DNA of 38,759 nucleotides, from assembly GCF_003334255.1 (NCBI RefSeq), contig NZ_QOWU01000056.1. One strand, 5' to 3'. Source of the stretch: Escherichia coli (GTDB lineage Bacteria > Pseudomonadota > Gammaproteobacteria > Enterobacterales > Enterobacteriaceae). A program made the position numbers and the translations under genes. The notes below the pieces were generated by a model that had not been told where the DNA came from, did no database searches, and worked only from the letters and a program-made list of their open reading frames with translations. Shown here piece after piece: positions 913-38,759 of this stretch. Numbering within the stretch: the stretch's first letter is position 1; every line of letters starts with the position of its first letter.

Positions 913-2340
913 ATGAGCGATAAAAAGAAGCGCAGTATGGCGGGTTTGCCGTGGATCGCGGCGATGGCCTTCTTCATGCAGGCACTTGATGCCACTATTC
1001 TTAATACCGCCTTACCCGCAATCGCTCATAGCCTTAATCGTTCTCCTCTCGCGATGCAATCAGCCATCATCAGTTATACGCTGACGGTGGCGATGCTTAT
1101 TCCGGTAAGCGGATGGCTAGCCGATCGCTTCGGTACGCGTCGCATTTTTACCCTTGCCGTGAGTCTGTTCACATTGGGTTCTCTGGCCTGCGCACTTTCT
1201 AATTCGCTACCACAGCTGGTTGTCTTCCGGGTTATTCAGGGGATAGGCGGCGCAATGATGATGCCTGTTGCTCGGCTGGCCTTACTGCGCGCTTATCCTC
1301 GTAATGAACTTCTTCCAGTATTGAATTTTGTCGCCATGCCGGGTCTGGTGGGGCCAATTTTAGGCCCCGTTCTTGGCGGCGTGCTGGTCACCTGGGCAAC
1401 CTGGCACTGGATATTTTTAATCAATATCCCCATAGGTATTGCGGGCCTTCTTTACGCGCGCAAACATATGCCCAATTTCACCACCGCACGACGCAGATTC
1501 GATATCACTGGCTTTTTGCTGTTTGGCCTCAGCCTTGTTCTCTTCTCAAGCGGAATAGAGCTATTCGGGGAAAAGATTGTCGCCAGCTGGATTGCCTTGA
1601 CGGTAATTGTCACCAGCATCGGGTTACTGCTTCTCTATATTCTCCATGCACGACGCACGCCAAACCCATTAATTTCATTAGATTTATTTAAAACCCGCAC
1701 TTTCTCGATCGGTATCGTAGGCAATATTGCAACCCGTCTGGGGACCGGCTGTGTACCGTTCCTTATGCCATTGATGTTACAGGTAGGATTTGGTTATCAG
1801 GCGTTTATTGCTGGCTGTATGATGGCACCGACAGCGTTAGGTTCCATTATTGCAAAATCGATGGTTACCCAAGTCTTACGTCGTCTGGGCTATCGCCATA
1901 CGTTAGTGGGGATCACGGTGATTATTGGGCTAATGATCGCTCAGTTCTCTTTGCAATCACCAGCAATGGCTATATGGATGCTGATCTTGCCGTTGTTTAT
2001 ATTAGGGATGGCTATGTCGACGCAGTTTACCGCGATGAATACCATCACACTTGCCGATCTGACCGATGACAATGCCAGCAGCGGTAACAGTGTTCTGGCG
2101 GTCACGCAGCAACTGTCGATTAGTTTAGGCGTTGCTGTAAGTGCGGCCGTCCTTCGCGTTTATGAAGGAATGGAAGGCACAACGACTGTCGAACAATTCC
2201 ACTATACGTTTATCACAATGGGCATTATTACTGTTGCTTCAGCAGCAATGTTCATGCTTCTGAAAACAACCGATGGTAATAATTTGATCAAAAGACAGCG
2301 TAAATCTAAGCCGAACCGCGTTCCATCAGAATCGGAGTAA
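913..2340 (+). CDS. hsrA: MFS-family multidrug/efflux transporter HsrA (YieO)
   Basis: 475-aa ORF, highly hydrophobic with many predicted TM segments; position between yieP and rbsR. Confidence 0.9.
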
Positions 2341-3298
2341 GTTGTAATCGTTGTTGCTGAAGGGTCGGCTGGGTTATCCGATGGATGAGTACATCAATCG
2401 CCAGCTCCCCCAGTTCATCTTTCGGTTGGTGGATAGTGGTTAATGGTGGCGTCATAAAGCTTGCCAGTTCGATATCGTCATAGCCAATCACCGCGATATC
2501 CTGCGGAACCTGTAACTCTGCCTGATATAACGCCTGGTAAACGCCAACAGCCATAGCGTCATTTCCGGTAAAGACGGCCTGAGGACGCAGCGGATGTGAT
2601 AGCAGTTGGCGCATAGCGTCAAACCCGCCGTTAAATTCAAAATCACCAGTGACTTCATAGCCATCAGGAATGTTGAGACCCGCACGTTTCATCGCCGCCC
2701 GATAACCTTCCAACCGCAGGCGCGCCGGAGTTTTATCCAGCGGGCCGGTAATACAGGCGATACGGGTATGACCTTTATCGATCAGATATTGCGTTGCTAA
2801 GTCTCCGCCCAGCAACGAGTTATCCTGAATAAGATCGCTGTCGCCATCGAACGGAGCCCAGTCCATCATCACAGTAGGCACTGTCGGATAACGTTGCATG
2901 ATTTCACGCGAAGGTTGATGCGTTTCGGTGCACAGTAACAGCAAGCCATCAACGCGTTTTTGCATCAGCGTTTCCAGATTGCGATTCATCCGCTGTTCAT
3001 CGCCTTCGGTATTGCAAAGGACGAGACTATAACCGCGTTCGAAGCAGCTGCGTTCAACGCCACGCACCAGTTCTGAATAGAAAGGATTGGTACTGGCAGT
3101 GATCAACATGCCAATGGTATGTGTTTGATTGAGTTTGAGGCTACGCGCCAGAGCTGATGGCGCGTAATTGAGTTCTTTAATCGCCGCTTCAACTTTGGCG
3201 GTAATCGCTTCACTGACGAAGCGATCTTTATTGATAACGTGAGAAACTGTTGAGGTAGAAACGCCCGCCAGGCGGGCAACATCTTTCATTGTAGCCAA
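2306..3298 (-). CDS. rbsR: ribose operon repressor RbsR (LacI family)
   Basis: 330-aa ORF; N-terminal LacI-type HTH ([24 protein letters not shown]); immediately downstream of rbsK. Confidence 0.95.
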
Positions 3299-6241: not shown

Positions 6242-7747
6242 TTACTCCTGATTCACGCGATTAAGCTTGCCCACAGCGGCAGCCATTAACACTTCCTGGG
6301 TGGCCTGCTCACGAGTAAATTCCCCGCTGAGATGCCCTTCATGCATGACGATGATGCGATCGCTCATGCCTAATACTTCTGGCATCTCCGATGACACCAG
6401 AATGATGCTCAAGCCATCGGCTTTGAACTGGTTAATCAGTTGATAGATCTCTTTTTTCGCGCCGACATCTACGCCACGGGTAGGTTCATCAAGGATCAAC
6501 ACTTTGGGGCGTGTCATCAGACCGCGGGCAATCGCCACTTTTTGCTGATTGCCACCGGAAAGCAGACCAATTGCCTGTTCCATCGACGGAGTTTTCACAT
6601 TAAACAGACGAATGAAATCACTCACAGCCTGCTGTTCATCGGCATGCTTCAAACTGCCGCCAGCGCGGCTGAAGTAGCGCAGCGCTGTCAGCGACATGTT
6701 CTCTTTTACTGACATGCCCAACACTAAACCGTCACGTTTACGGTCTTCGGAGATATACACAATGCCGTTTGCCAGGCCATCCTGCGGTGAACGGGTAACG
6801 ACTTCATGCCCATCCAGGGTGACGTAACCGCTGGTGCGCGGTAGTGCGCCGTAGAGCACTTTCATCAGTTCGGTACGACCTGCGCCCATCAAACCAGAGA
6901 CGCCAAGAATTTCGCCTTTGCGTAAAGTAAAAGAGACATCGTTAACGCCAGGTCCGCAGAGATTATCGACTTTCAGGCGGATATCTCCCGGCGCTTTGTC
7001 CAGGTGCGGATATTGATCTTCCAGCTTGCGACCCACCATCATCTCAATCAGCGAATCTTCGGTCAGTGATGCCACTTCGCGCTCAGCAATAAATTGCCCA
7101 TCACGAAAAACGGTAACGTCATCGCAAATCTCGAAGATTTCTTTCATGCGGTGGGAGATATAGACAATACCGCGGCCTTGCGATTTCAGCTCGCGGATGA
7201 CGCGGAACAGGGATTCGGTTTCGGTATCGGTCAGCGCATCGGTCGGTTCATCCATAATGATGACTTTCGACTCAAAGCTCAGCACTTTGGCGATTTCAAC
7301 CATTTGCTGGTCACCGATGGAAAGATCGCCCACCAGCTTGTCGCTTTTAAAGCGCAGGTTAAGTTTAGCCAGCAATTTATCCGCTTCGGCATACATGGTT
7401 TTCCAGTCAATTTTGCCAAAGCGATTAACAAACTCACGACCGAGGAAAATGTTTTCGGCAATGGTCAACTGCGGGATCAGGTTCAGTTCCTGATGGATAA
7501 TCCCAATCCCGGCTTCCTGGGAAGATTTTGGCCCGGTAAATGTCGTTTCTTTCCCCAGCCATAAAAGCGTACCGGCATCGCGAGTATAGATGCCAGTAAG
7601 CACTTTCATCATGGTGGATTTACCCGCGCCGTTTTCGCCCACCAGCGCCATCACGCGGCCCGGATAGACATTTAACGCTGCGCCCGAGAGGGCTTTTACG
7701 CCCGGGAAGGCTTTATCGATGCCTTTAAGCTGAAGTAATGCTTCCAT
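6242..7747 (-). CDS. rbsA: ribose ABC transporter ATP-binding protein (duplicated ABC domains)
   Basis: 501-aa ORF with two Walker A motifs (GENGAGKST; GLMGAGRTE) and ABC signature LSGGNQQK. Confidence 0.95.
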
Positions 7748-7754
7748 GACGGCC

Positions 7755-8174
7755 TCAGAACGTCACGCCAGCACAGAGAATGATATTCGCATACGGAGAA
7801 CATTCTCCGCTGCGAATTACCGCCTGACTTTCTGCGGTTTGTTGTTTGAATTGTTCATGCGTGGTGTAACGAATTTCAATGGTATTTCCCTGGTGTTTTT
7901 GCAGCTGCTCAAGGTGAGTGAGCAACGTTTCGTGGAGTTGCGGATTATGGTGTTTGATCTCTTCCGCGATAATGGCCGCCTCGACCTGCATTTCATTTGT
8001 GACGACGCCCAGCACCTGCATAAAAGAAGGTACACCCTGGGTTAATGCCATATCGATACGCGTTGTACTTTTGGGGATGGGTAAACCAGCATCACACACC
8101 ACCAGCGTATCGGTATGTCCCAGACGGGAGATCACCGATGAAATATCAGAATTAAGAACGGTGCCTTTTTTCAT
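7755..8174 (-). CDS. rbsD: D-ribose pyranase
   Basis: 139 aa starting [22 protein letters not shown]; ORF track extends 12 codons upstream across the operator palindrome, which I consider non-coding. Confidence 0.9.
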
Positions 8175-8186
8175 TTTTTTCTCCAT

Positions 8187-8204
8187 CAGCGAAACGTTTC
8201 GCTG
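8187..8204. promoter_or_regulatory. Perfect 18-bp palindrome CAGCGAAACGTTTCGCTG just upstream of rbsD; probable RbsR operator
   Basis: Perfect dyad read directly from the sequence, 13 bp upstream of the rbsD start codon; LacI-family repressors bind such palindromes. A half-site-like copy (TCGAAACGTTTT) lies at ~8268..8280. Confidence 0.7.
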
Positions 8205-8340
8205 ACCCACAGTTTAATCCTGACTGAGTTGGGAAAACCATCGTGACGTTACGGAAATGTGATCAACCTCGAAACGTTTTACATGGTGATTAACCATGAA
8301 AACAAAAACGCCCCCTTATGAAGAAAGGAGGCGTCTGGCG

Positions 8341-10209
8341 TTAGATTTCGACCTGAGTACCCAGTTCGATAACCCTGTTTGGCGGGATTTCAAATTGATC
8401 TGGTGCACGCAGCGCATTACGTTGCAGCAGCAAGTACAGCTTGCCGCGCAGACGCAAATACCACGGGCGTTTGCCGAGGATCAACGACTCATGCGACATA
8501 AAGAAGGAGGTTTCCATCATCCGGCAACTTAATCCTTCCAGACCGCAGCGGTGGAAAACTTCTTCTACGTTTGGCGTTTCTCGCCAACCATAACTTGCCA
8601 CCACGCGCCAGAAAGTGGGCGACAGTTGTTCAATCTGTACCCGACGGACGTTATGGACATATGGAGCGTCTTCGGTGCGCAGAGTTAACAGAATCACCCG
8701 CTCATGCAATACCTTGTTATGTTTAAGGTTATGCATCAGCGCAAAGGGAATGACGTTGATTGCACGCGACATATACACCGCGGTCCCGGGCACGCGAACA
8801 GGCGGTGATTTCTCCAGCGAAGCAATCATCGCTTCCAGAGAGTTACCATGTTCATGCATCCGCCGCAGCAAGCGGAAACGCTCGCTCTTCCAGGTGGTCA
8901 TCACGATAAACATCACAGTACCGAGGCTCAATGGCAACCAGCCGCCGGAGAGCAGTTTATCGAGGTTAGCGGTGAACAATGGAATATCGACACAAAGGAA
9001 AGCAATCAGGATCAGCGCAACAAAATACTTATTCCAGTGCCAGTTCTGACGTGCCACGGTAGTCGAGAGAATAGACGTCAGCACCATGGTTCCGGTCACC
9101 GCAATCCCGTACGCCGCCGCCAGGTTGCTGGAGTGCTCAAAGCTGACAATCACAATCACGACCGCGACATAGAGCATCCAGTTCACAAACGGAATATAGA
9201 TTTGCCCTGACTCCATTTCGGAGGTGTGAATAATGCGCATCGGCGACAAATATCCCAGACGTACCGCCTGACGCGTCAATGAGAAGACGCCAGAGATAAC
9301 CGCCTGCGAGGCAATTACCGTCGCCAGTGCGGCGATGATCAGCAGCGGGATCAGCGCCCAGTCCGGTGCCAACAGGAAGAACGGGTTCTTAATCGCTTCC
9401 GGGTTCTTTAACAACAGCGCTCCCTGACCGAAGTAATTAAGGGTCAAGGAAGGTAATACGACGGTGAACCACGCCAGGCGAATAGGGAACTTACCAAAGT
9501 GCCCCATATCAGCATACAGCGCCTCGACCCCCGTAATCGACAACACCACTGCCCCTAATGCAATAAAAGAAACCGTTTTGTATTCAAGGAAGAAATGCAC
9601 CGCCCACATTGGATTCAGCGCATGCAGCACTTCCGGGTTAGCAATAATGCTACGTAACCCCAGTCCTGCCAGAATCAAAAACCAGGTCAGCATGATCGGC
9701 GCAAACAGCTTACCGACCATAGCCGTGCCATGTTTTTGAATCATAAATAATAAAGTGAGAACGATAATTGAGAGGGGAACTATCCAGGTATCCAGCTGCG
9801 GGGCGACGATTTCCAGACCTTCAATGGCTGACATCACCGAAATAGCGGGTGTTATGACGACTTCACCATAGAAAAAGCTGCCGCCGATTAGCCCCATAAT
9901 CACCAGCATTGATGTGGTTCGCGCCGACGTATTACGCCCGGCAAGCGACATCAACGTCAGGATCCCCCCCTCACCGGCGTTATCTGCCCGCATCACGAAG
10001 GTGAGATATTTAATGGAAACCACAAAGATTAGCAGCCAGAAGATCAGCGATAAAAAGCCAAACACGGCATCGCGTTCAACGCCAAAACCAAACTGGCCGG
10101 ACAAACATTCACGAAGTGTATATAACGGGCTGGTACCAATATCGCCGTAGACAACTCCAATCGCCGCGAGGGTAATCGCGGGCAATGATTGCTTATTATC
10201 AGTGCTCAT
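8341..10209 (-). CDS. kup: KUP-family potassium uptake transporter
   Basis: 622-aa ORF, hydrophobic N-terminal two-thirds plus hydrophilic C-terminal domain; synteny next to rbsD. Confidence 0.95.
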
Positions 10210-15513: not shown

Positions 15514-15529
15514 GTATACAGATCGTGCG

Positions 15530-15805
15530 ATCTACTGTGGATAACTCTGTCAGGAAGCTTGGATCAACCGGTAGTTATCCAAAGAACAACTGTTGTTCAG
15601 TTTTTGAGTTGTGTATAACCCCTCATTCTGATCCCAGCTTATACGGTCCAGGATCACCGATCATTCACAGTTAATGATCCTTTCCAGGTTGTTGATCTTA
15701 AAAGCCGGATCCTTGTTATCCACAGGGCAGTGCGATCCTAATAAGAGATCACAATAGAACAGATCTCTAAATAAATAGATCTTCTTTTTAATACCCAGGA
15801 TCCCA
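15530..15805. other. oriC: chromosomal replication origin oriC
   Basis: DnaA boxes R4 (15536..15544, TGTGGATAA), R3 (15575..15583, TTATCCAAA), R2 (15610..15618, TGTGTATAA), R5/M (15661..15669, TCATTCACA), R1 (15716..15724, TTATCCACA); three AT-rich 13-mers at 15738..15750, 15753..15765, 15769..15781; ~14 GATC sites in ~290 bp; BamHI site 15798..15803; mioC/gidA flanks. Confidence 0.97.
15738..15795. repeat. oriC DNA-unwinding element: three tandem 13-mers (GATCTnTTnTTTT family, here on minus strand) plus AT cluster
   Basis: CTAATAAGAGATC / AATAGAACAGATC / AAATAAATAGATC read directly from the sequence. Confidence 0.9.
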
Positions 15806-15891
15806 GGTCTTTCTCAAGCCGACAAAGTTGAGTAGAATCCACGGCCCGGGCTTCAATCCATTTTCATACCGCGTTATGCGAGGCAATCACC

Positions 15892-26028: not shown

Positions 26029-26324
26029 GTGTGACCCGTCCTGAATAGCGTTCACATAGATCCTGCTGATATAAAACCCCCCTGTTTTCCTGTTTATTCA
26101 TTGATCGAAATAAGAGCAAAAACATCCACCTGACGCTTAAATTAAGGTACTGCCTTAATTTTCTGCAGACAAAAGGCGTGACGATGGTCGAAAATGGCGC
26201 TTTCGTCAGCGGGGATAATCCGTTATTGAACAATTTATCCTCTGTCCATTTCACGATGAAAAAAATGTAGTTTTTTCAAGGTGAAGCGGTTTAAATTCGT
26301 TCTCAAATTACAGTCAGGACGCGT

Positions 26325-34867: not shown

Positions 34868-38759
<3,892 letters not shown>

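Follow-up and report, generated by a model that had tools for sequence, protein, structure and literature searches.

Results

Genomic context of the rbs regulatory region

We analyzed a 38,759-nucleotide stretch of Escherichia coli DNA (contig NZ_QOWU01000056.1), hereafter called the window. Its minus strand carries kup, rbsD, rbsA, rbsC, rbsB, rbsK and rbsR, as assigned by the RefSeq annotation of MG1655. Positions 7700..8400 are 100% identical to E. coli K-12 MG1655, and the region is present in 5412 of 5426 complete E. coli genomes. The features considered in this study are the following, with the evidence for each given in brackets.

10209..8341, minus strand: kup (annotation)
8306..8336, minus strand: intrinsic terminator of kup, a 12-pair stem followed by a T run (terminator scan)
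8268..8283, no strand assigned: second RbsR-type site (O2), decayed in Escherichia (10-mer repeat, comparison with other genera)
8255..8276, minus strand: CRP-type site, a 22-mer reading CGT-TTCGA-GGTTGA-TCACA-TTT (conservation, geometry, literature)
8211..8216, minus strand: putative -10 hexamer TAAACT (conservation)
8186..8205, no strand assigned: primary RbsR operator rbsO (O1), a perfect 20-bp dyad, TCAGCGAAACGTTTCGCTGA (sequence, published oligonucleotide, conservation)
8181..8185, minus strand: Shine-Dalgarno region of rbsD, TGGAG (6-10 nt upstream of the ATG at 8174)
7755..8174, minus strand: rbsD coding sequence, D-ribose pyranase of 139 aa (RefSeq annotation of MG1655)
2306..3298, minus strand: rbsR, last gene of the operon, encoding the cognate repressor of the LacI family (annotation and PDB match)

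The copies of the operator repeat described below sit within one 166-bp intergenic region, and the kup terminator forms the far-side boundary of the rbs regulatory region. A cognate repressor gene of the LacI family is linked to the operon, with rbsR located at its end. The RbsR protein encoded in the window matches the chains of PDB 9ny7/9ny8, named 'Ribose operon repressor', with 735 bits, and its next closest structural relative is PurR with 321 bits.

The window further spans the atp operon, glmUS, pstSCAB-phoU and bglGFB, and it includes the mioC-mnmG intergenic gap (about 15514..15891), which is the site of the chromosomal origin oriC in E. coli K-12 according to the literature. The only Rfam match in the window is a full-length copy of the enterobacterial sRNA STnc410 (26084..26241, minus strand, 188 bits), which is placed between the genes atpC and glmU and has the opposite orientation to atp and glmU.

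The palindrome upstream of rbsD is the published operator rbsO

An earlier note, made from the sequence, had described a perfect 18-bp palindrome in front of rbsD. This palindrome, CAGCGAAACGTTTCGCTG, is found exactly at 8187..8204, and the perfect symmetry extends beyond 18 bp to 20 bp, with the arms TCAGCGAAAC and GTTTCGCTGA meeting at zero spacer. The dyad is centred at 8195.5, between C8195 and G8196 of the plus strand, and thus contains a central CpG. Even-length palindromes of about 16-20 bp with a central CpG are the form expected of operators of the LacI/GalR family, and this is the form displayed by O1. Only 0.02 matches to the 18-mer with up to three mismatches are expected by chance, as estimated from the shuffled window. 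One further match with three mismatches was observed at 35285..35302 and was dropped, since it lies inside bglG. The edge of the dyad is located at -13 from the annotated ATG at 8174, in agreement with the distance of 13 bp given previously, and the 12 nt between the 18-mer and this ATG include the Shine-Dalgarno sequence GGAG.

The interpretation of the palindrome as a LacI-family operator for RbsR was confirmed by comparison with the published operator, as had been proposed beforehand. The 30-mer rbsO oligonucleotide that was crystallised with RbsR, GTGGGTCAGCGAAACGTTTCGCTGATGGAG, is identical to positions 8210..8181 of the window on the minus strand (bioRxiv 10.1101/2025.04.02.646877). The same 2025 preprint presents structures at 2.1 Å of RbsR with ribose and of RbsR with its operator, deposited as PDB 9ny7/9ny8. 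The match of the rbsR product in the window to these chains lends additional support to the assignment, as does the invariance of the 16-bp core described below. It has also been reported in the literature that a reporter carrying the cloned wild-type rbsDACBK operator was made for assays with wild-type RbsR, and that Serratia RbsR shifts an rbsD probe that is released by ribose. Neither of the two findings that the earlier note had set against its own reading, an RbsR footprint mapping elsewhere or an annotated rbsD start upstream of the palindrome, was encountered. Mauzy and Hermodson are said to have mapped, in 1992, the footprint of RbsR to the O1 dyad, overlapping the transcription start. 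E. coli K-12 is, to our knowledge, the only species that has been footprinted.

Comparative footprint of the promoter region across Enterobacterales

The comparison was based on one genome per species and included 80 Enterobacteriaceae rbsD loci, with RbsD proteins that are 86-99% identical. Column conservation was calculated for 75 species, leaving out the group of E. coli, E. albertii and E. whittamii, and showed a background of about 0.4-0.8. The list of protein homologues contained only close Enterobacteriaceae, and the representatives at 50% identity mostly skipped the intermediate families.

Four islands of conservation were identified in the 75 species, corresponding to O1, the -10 hexamer, a CRP half-site and O2. 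The O1 island consists of the core AGCGAAACGTTTCGCT (8203..8188), of which all 16 columns are invariant in 75 of 75 species, and Dickeya has this core as well. The C...G pair at the ends of the 18-bp dyad (8204/8187) is found only in Escherichia, and other genera keep only the 16-bp core. O1 falls between the conserved -10-like motif TAnACT (8216..8211) and the Shine-Dalgarno sequence.

The motif AAACGTTT occurs twice upstream of rbsD in all 80 Enterobacteriaceae loci. The two copies are separated by 78 bp in 6 loci, by 79 bp in 46 loci and by 80 bp in 28 loci, so that O2 is present in every locus at 78-80 bp from O1; in Dickeya the distance is 81 bp. The O2 island, CGAAACGTTTCGA (8281..8269), comprises 13 invariant columns, and a G is found at 8282 in 95% of the species, whereas the flanks of O2 and the spacer of the CRP site vary. 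Outside Escherichia, the minus strand at O2 reads [A/T/C]GCGAAACGTTTCGA, which is a full RbsR-type palindrome holding a perfect 12-bp palindrome, CGAAACGTTTCG. In 71 species O2 shares 14-15 of 16 positions with the O1 core, and both half-sites are close to O1, as compared to 11-12 of 16 positions in Escherichia. The difference is located in the far half, which reads GTAAAAC in Escherichia (the window and loci L002-L006) and GCGAAAC elsewhere, such that two adjacent and otherwise invariant bases are changed. At -5/-6 from the centre, O1 and the O2 of other genera thus carry G and C, as part of GCGAAAC.

Of the outgroups that were followed, only Dickeya was informative. In Dickeya ananatis (Pectobacteriaceae), O2, the CRP site, a -10 hexamer reading TACACT and O1 are all kept, with O2 and O1 81 bp apart, and the sequence in between has diverged. 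The region upstream of rbsD in Photobacterium damselae (L083) has a different layout, and no second site is present 80 bp away. In this locus (1400..1440), ATCGAAACGTTTGCGT is directly followed by AATCGTTTCGAT, about 96 bp upstream of the ATG, and the two operator halves resemble those of PurR (GCAAAC) and of RbsR (TCGAAAC), respectively. Two other outgroups were discarded, P0125 because it is a noisy Enterobacter-like assembly and P0142 because it is not in an rbs context.

One locus labelled 'Escherichia sp. ESNIH1' (L080) has an intact O2. Its O2, O1 and CRP-region strings are nearly identical to those of Pseudescherichia vulneris (L079) and not to those of Escherichia, and the genus label of this entry looks outdated.

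CRP-type site and promoter elements

A CRP-type site (TTCGA-N6-TCACA), whose weaker half is also the promoter-side half of O2, reads TGTGAtcaaccTCGAA on the plus strand (8258..8273) and is centred at 8265.5. This site matches the CRP consensus TGTGA-N6-TCACA at 8 of 10 positions, with one perfect half (TGTGA, 8258..8262). Matches of that quality are no rarer than expected by chance in the window (17 found versus 16.0 expected), and the assignment to CRP is therefore based on conservation, geometry and the literature. The two pentamers are conserved around a free 6-bp spacer: in the 75 species TTCGA and (GA)TCACA do not vary, and four spacer columns have conservation values of 0.44-0.81. These four variable columns directly precede the invariant half-site island GATCACA (8264..8258). 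The centres of O2 and of the CRP site are 10 bp apart in 81 of 81 sequences, and in 71 of 81 sequences the CRP centre is separated by 49.5 bp from the first base of the -10 hexamer. The CRP site would thus be located at -61.5, a class I position, if the hexamer occupies -12..-7. In the literature, the activity of the rbsD promoter is reported to rise with external cAMP, and the rbs genes are listed among the targets of CRP feed-forward loops.

The putative -10 hexamer is conserved as T(0.87) A(1.0) n A(1.0) C(0.95) T(1.0) in the 75 species, which suggests a transcription start near 8204/8203. The start and all position numbers given here are derived from this hexamer; on this scale the centre of O1 would lie at about +9.5 and the centre of O2, at 8275.5, at about -71.5. 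A scan of 8100..8400 with the sigma-70 consensus identified no promoter and no consensus -35, and the absence of the latter is taken as typical of a promoter that depends on CRP or another activator.

Near-complete conservation in the 75 species was also seen for a further block at 8231..8242, located between the CRP site and the -10 hexamer. Its minus-strand sequence is GATGGTTTTCCC in E. coli and GATGGTTTTCTG in other genera. The bases T-G-G-T-T at 8240..8236 all have conservation values of 1.00, and the TG at 8232/8231 (0.96-0.97) is replaced by CC in E. coli. The block occupies the place of a -35 element, yet has only 0-2 of 6 matches to TTGACA. A contact for the alpha-CTD or for sigma, or a site for another factor, are possibilities.

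The second RbsR-type site in E. coli

The earlier note had also pointed to a related sequence upstream of the palindrome, at approximately 8268..8280, and this was found as TCGAAACGTTTT at 8269..8280. It shares with O1 the exact 10-mer CGAAACGTTT (8270..8279), at a distance of 80 bp from centre to centre. The 10-mer occurs three times in the window as compared to 0.10 expected, and all copies are intergenic: two are part of the palindrome and one is located at O2. A looser 12-mer with up to two mismatches was not enriched in the window (5 found versus 2.36 expected). The similarity of O2 to the operator is more than chance.

The E. coli O2, which reads TGTAAAACGTTTCGAG on the minus strand, is identical to the O1 core at 11 of 16 positions, and the two half-sites are not both close to O1, as the far half GTAAAAC is without the invariant C and G. 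Since these two otherwise invariant bases have been lost, O2 of E. coli is probably weak or vestigial, and most of its remaining conservation is probably due to the CRP site. We infer that the second site in E. coli is mainly a CRP site, combined with what is left of a decayed second operator. The core is kept together with one intact half-site, and RbsR may still bind weakly to them. Only one RbsR operator is annotated for the rbs operon of E. coli (one paper), which is consistent with a decayed O2 in this species and makes any function of O2 a putative one. Thus, the suggestion that this sequence is a possible auxiliary site holds in part. A conserved and full RbsR-type palindrome is present at this position in other genera, but the far half of the Escherichia site is without two invariant bases, and the part that E. 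coli retains coincides with the CRP-type site, which had been missed.

A third operator-like site inside rbsD was considered and rejected. This half-site, CGAAACGTTGCT (7921..7932, minus strand), covers codons 81-85 of rbsD, 269 bp downstream of O1. Its conservation at synonymous sites is 0.94-0.95, and the third-codon positions are conserved at 0.88-1.00, with ACG used for Thr and TTG for Leu. The site is not unique in the gene, since several other five-codon windows of rbsD reach the same conservation, and 12-mer matches of comparable quality are expected by chance, for which reasons it was judged unsupported.

Discussion

Proposed regulation of the rbs promoter

We consider it highly probable that O1 is rbsO, that the promoter is dependent on cAMP-CRP acting from a class I site, and that the O2 of E. 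coli is a decayed second RbsR operator that overlaps with the CRP site. A dimer of RbsR, encoded at the end of the rbsDACBKR operon, sits on rbsO symmetrically around the central CpG; the binding of RbsR to O1 and the role of ribose as inducer are established in the literature. O1 would span roughly +1 to +20, just downstream of the putative -10 hexamer TAAACT. As the operator would begin at about the transcription start, bound RbsR would sterically block the RNA polymerase. The affinity of RbsR for the operator is lowered by D-ribose, and the operon is thereby induced. With no usable -35, the promoter would depend on cAMP-CRP, with CRP on TTCGA-N6-TCACA centred at 8265.5, putatively -61.5, and activating from the class I position as in lac. 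The sequence at 8269..8280 would represent the promoter-side half and the core of O2, whose own centre is 10 bp upstream of that of the CRP site.

In most Enterobacterales, a near-perfect O2 would share the TTCGA half with CRP. RbsR bound to O2 would most plausibly exclude CRP, since both would use the same major groove, and anti-activation would thereby be added to the steric block at O1. The exclusion of CRP by O2-bound RbsR is the reading that we prefer for most Enterobacterales. The sequence, the identity of O1 with published rbsO, the pattern of conservation and the relative spacing of the sites are observations, whereas the occupancy of the CRP site, the binding of RbsR to O2 in any species and the competition between RbsR and CRP are all predicted steps of this model.

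A broader scenario, which we put forward tentatively as a possibility and not as the expected outcome, is that the rbs promoters of Enterobacterales contain two full RbsR operators, of which the upstream one competes with class I CRP through a common half-site. In Escherichia, the change from CG to TA at 8281/8280 would have disabled the far half, thereby uncoupling RbsR from CRP and shifting the rank of ribose in the sugar hierarchy relative to Salmonella, Klebsiella and Enterobacter.

Alternative interpretations

The O2 of E. coli (8268..8283) could instead be a working auxiliary operator, with RbsR dimers looping over 80 bp for stronger repression, as LacI does with O1 and O3. This would agree with the fact that 10 bp of the operator core are repeated exactly within one 166-bp intergenic region, with the O1-O2 spacing that is kept at 78-81 bp across Enterobacterales, and with a layout that resembles lac, where the operators are at +11 and -82 and CRP at -61.5. 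However, the fixed spacing is fully accounted for by the geometry of the promoter, in which O2 and CRP are always 10 bp apart and, in 71 of 81 sequences, 49.5 bp separate CRP from the -10 hexamer. Moreover, RbsR is predominantly a dimer down to 10 nM (bioRxiv 10.1101/2025.04.02.646877), and a chimera with the regulatory domain of RbsR showed no dependence on operator spacing and hence no looping (one paper). With only one annotated operator, and with a far half in E. coli that lacks two bases found to be invariant in 75 other species, we regard looping as improbable, although it is the strongest of the alternatives.

A second alternative is that O2 is unrelated to RbsR in any species and is a plain CRP site, of which the weaker half resembles the operator by chance. 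The motif TTCGA-N6-TCACA with its variable spacer is indeed a CRP-type pattern at the place of a class I activator, and the promoter is cAMP-dependent. But the five invariant columns CGAAA (8281..8277) and the G at 8282, present in 95% of the species, fall outside of the 22-bp CRP site, and CRP alone can therefore not explain the O2 island. Together with the common half, these columns form the 12-bp palindrome within a site that shares 14-15 of 16 positions with the O1 core. At -5/-6, this site has the G and C by which the O1 half-site departs from the PurR consensus. An additional argument is that a RegPrecise-derived table lists 17 RbsR sites in 11 enterobacterial regulons from 12 genomes. 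These numbers also suggest that second sites have probably already been catalogued for some of the genomes. All in all, a CRP site without any relation to RbsR seems very unlikely.

It is even harder to believe that the palindrome acts mainly as RNA, in the form of a hairpin at the 5' end of the rbsD leader that affects mRNA stability or translation near the Shine-Dalgarno sequence. With a start near 8204, the leader would open with a 7-bp hairpin ending 3 nt before GGAG, and folding of 55 nt gave a minimum free energy of -10.4 kcal/mol. This value is no better than for shuffled controls (z = -1.54; 15 of 200 shuffles were as good). All 16 bases of the core are invariant, including those of the loop, and no compensatory changes were observed; such strict invariance is the signature of a protein-binding site and not of an RNA stem. 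In addition, the direct binding of RbsR has been visualised by crystallography (bioRxiv 10.1101/2025.04.02.646877). A leader hairpin is at most a by-product.

Finally, we dismiss as next to impossible that the palindrome is coding sequence of a longer RbsD of 151 aa starting at GTG 8210, for although a mechanical open reading frame (7755..8210, minus strand) runs through the palindrome and N-terminally extended RbsD proteins of 141-201 aa have been called in public protein collections, the RefSeq start is the ATG at 8174, this ATG is preceded by a conserved GGAG, the distance from the operator to the ATG ranges from 20 to 28 nt across the loci and is not confined to multiples of three, and in 39 of 81 sequences just 4 codons upstream of the ATG are open. 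The earlier note had considered the longer frame an artefact, and this view is upheld by the annotated start and by an upstream frame that varies widely between species. The ATG start was found in 80 of 80 related loci, and in the TGGAG region 4 of 5 columns are invariant in the 75 species, the remaining position, 8182, being an A in 0.80. The extended calls, such as the 141-aa call in L082, are the same artefact.

An in-frame ATG is located inside the dyad at 8184..8186 on the minus strand, four codons upstream of the rbsD start (CTG ATG GAG AAA AAA ATG). It is replaced by GTG in other genera, and gene callers sometimes start there, as in the 141-aa call. This codon and GTG 8210 are together a source of the extended RbsD entries.

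Significance

O1 is already known at atomic resolution, and the main site is a textbook operator that offers nothing new by itself. It serves as a positive control for the calling of operators and reading-frame artefacts from sequence alone. The comparative data suggest that the model organism may be the exception, since every other enteric genus sampled keeps a near-perfect second RbsR-type site fused to the CRP site. If functional, this arrangement would represent a compact natural case of a repressor and an activator with a common half-site, and the lineage-specific loss of O2 could explain why a single operator is annotated. We found no description in the searchable literature of a second RbsR site, of the shared O2/CRP half-site or of the decay of O2 in Escherichia. 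Overall, the locus contains an ordinary and correctly read feature, with a small comparative footnote.

Comparison with known operators

With respect to rbsO of the E. coli rbsDACBKR operon, nothing differs: O1 has the same sequence, the same repressor gene and the same operon context. The RbsR regulog of Enterobacteriales in RegPrecise (Ravcheev et al. 2014) is a comparative-genomics catalogue of the same motif.

The organization of the rbs promoter also resembles that of lac. The lac promoter has its primary operator O1 at +11, a class I CRP site at -61.5 and the auxiliary operator O3 at -82. As in lac, the primary LacI-family operator of rbs is located just downstream of the putative start, the candidate class I CRP site is 49.5 bp from the -10 hexamer, and a second operator-like site is found upstream of CRP. 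Unlike in lac, O2 of rbs is only 10 bp from the CRP centre, measured from centre to centre, and has a pentamer in common with it, for which reason exclusion is expected and not binding side by side. LacI is a tetramer, whereas RbsR is dimeric and shows no signs of looping, and O2 is nearly as good as O1 in most genera, whereas O3 of lac is very weak.

At the level of the motif, there is a resemblance to the operator of PurR. The PUR box, ACGCAAACGTTTGCGT, is like O1 a 16-bp dyad around AAACGTTT with a central CpG. The PurR consensus has C and G at -5/-6 (CGCAAAC), whereas O1 and the O2 of other genera read G and C (GCGAAAC), and cross-binding of PurR was rejected on this basis. In Ravcheev et al. 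2014, PurR is described as a paralogue that arose from RbsR, and the RbsR and PurR motifs are reported to differ at branch-specific positions (Figure 8 of that study). The two regulators also differ in their response to ligands according to the same source, in that RbsR binds to DNA without its ligand, whereas PurR binds with its corepressor.
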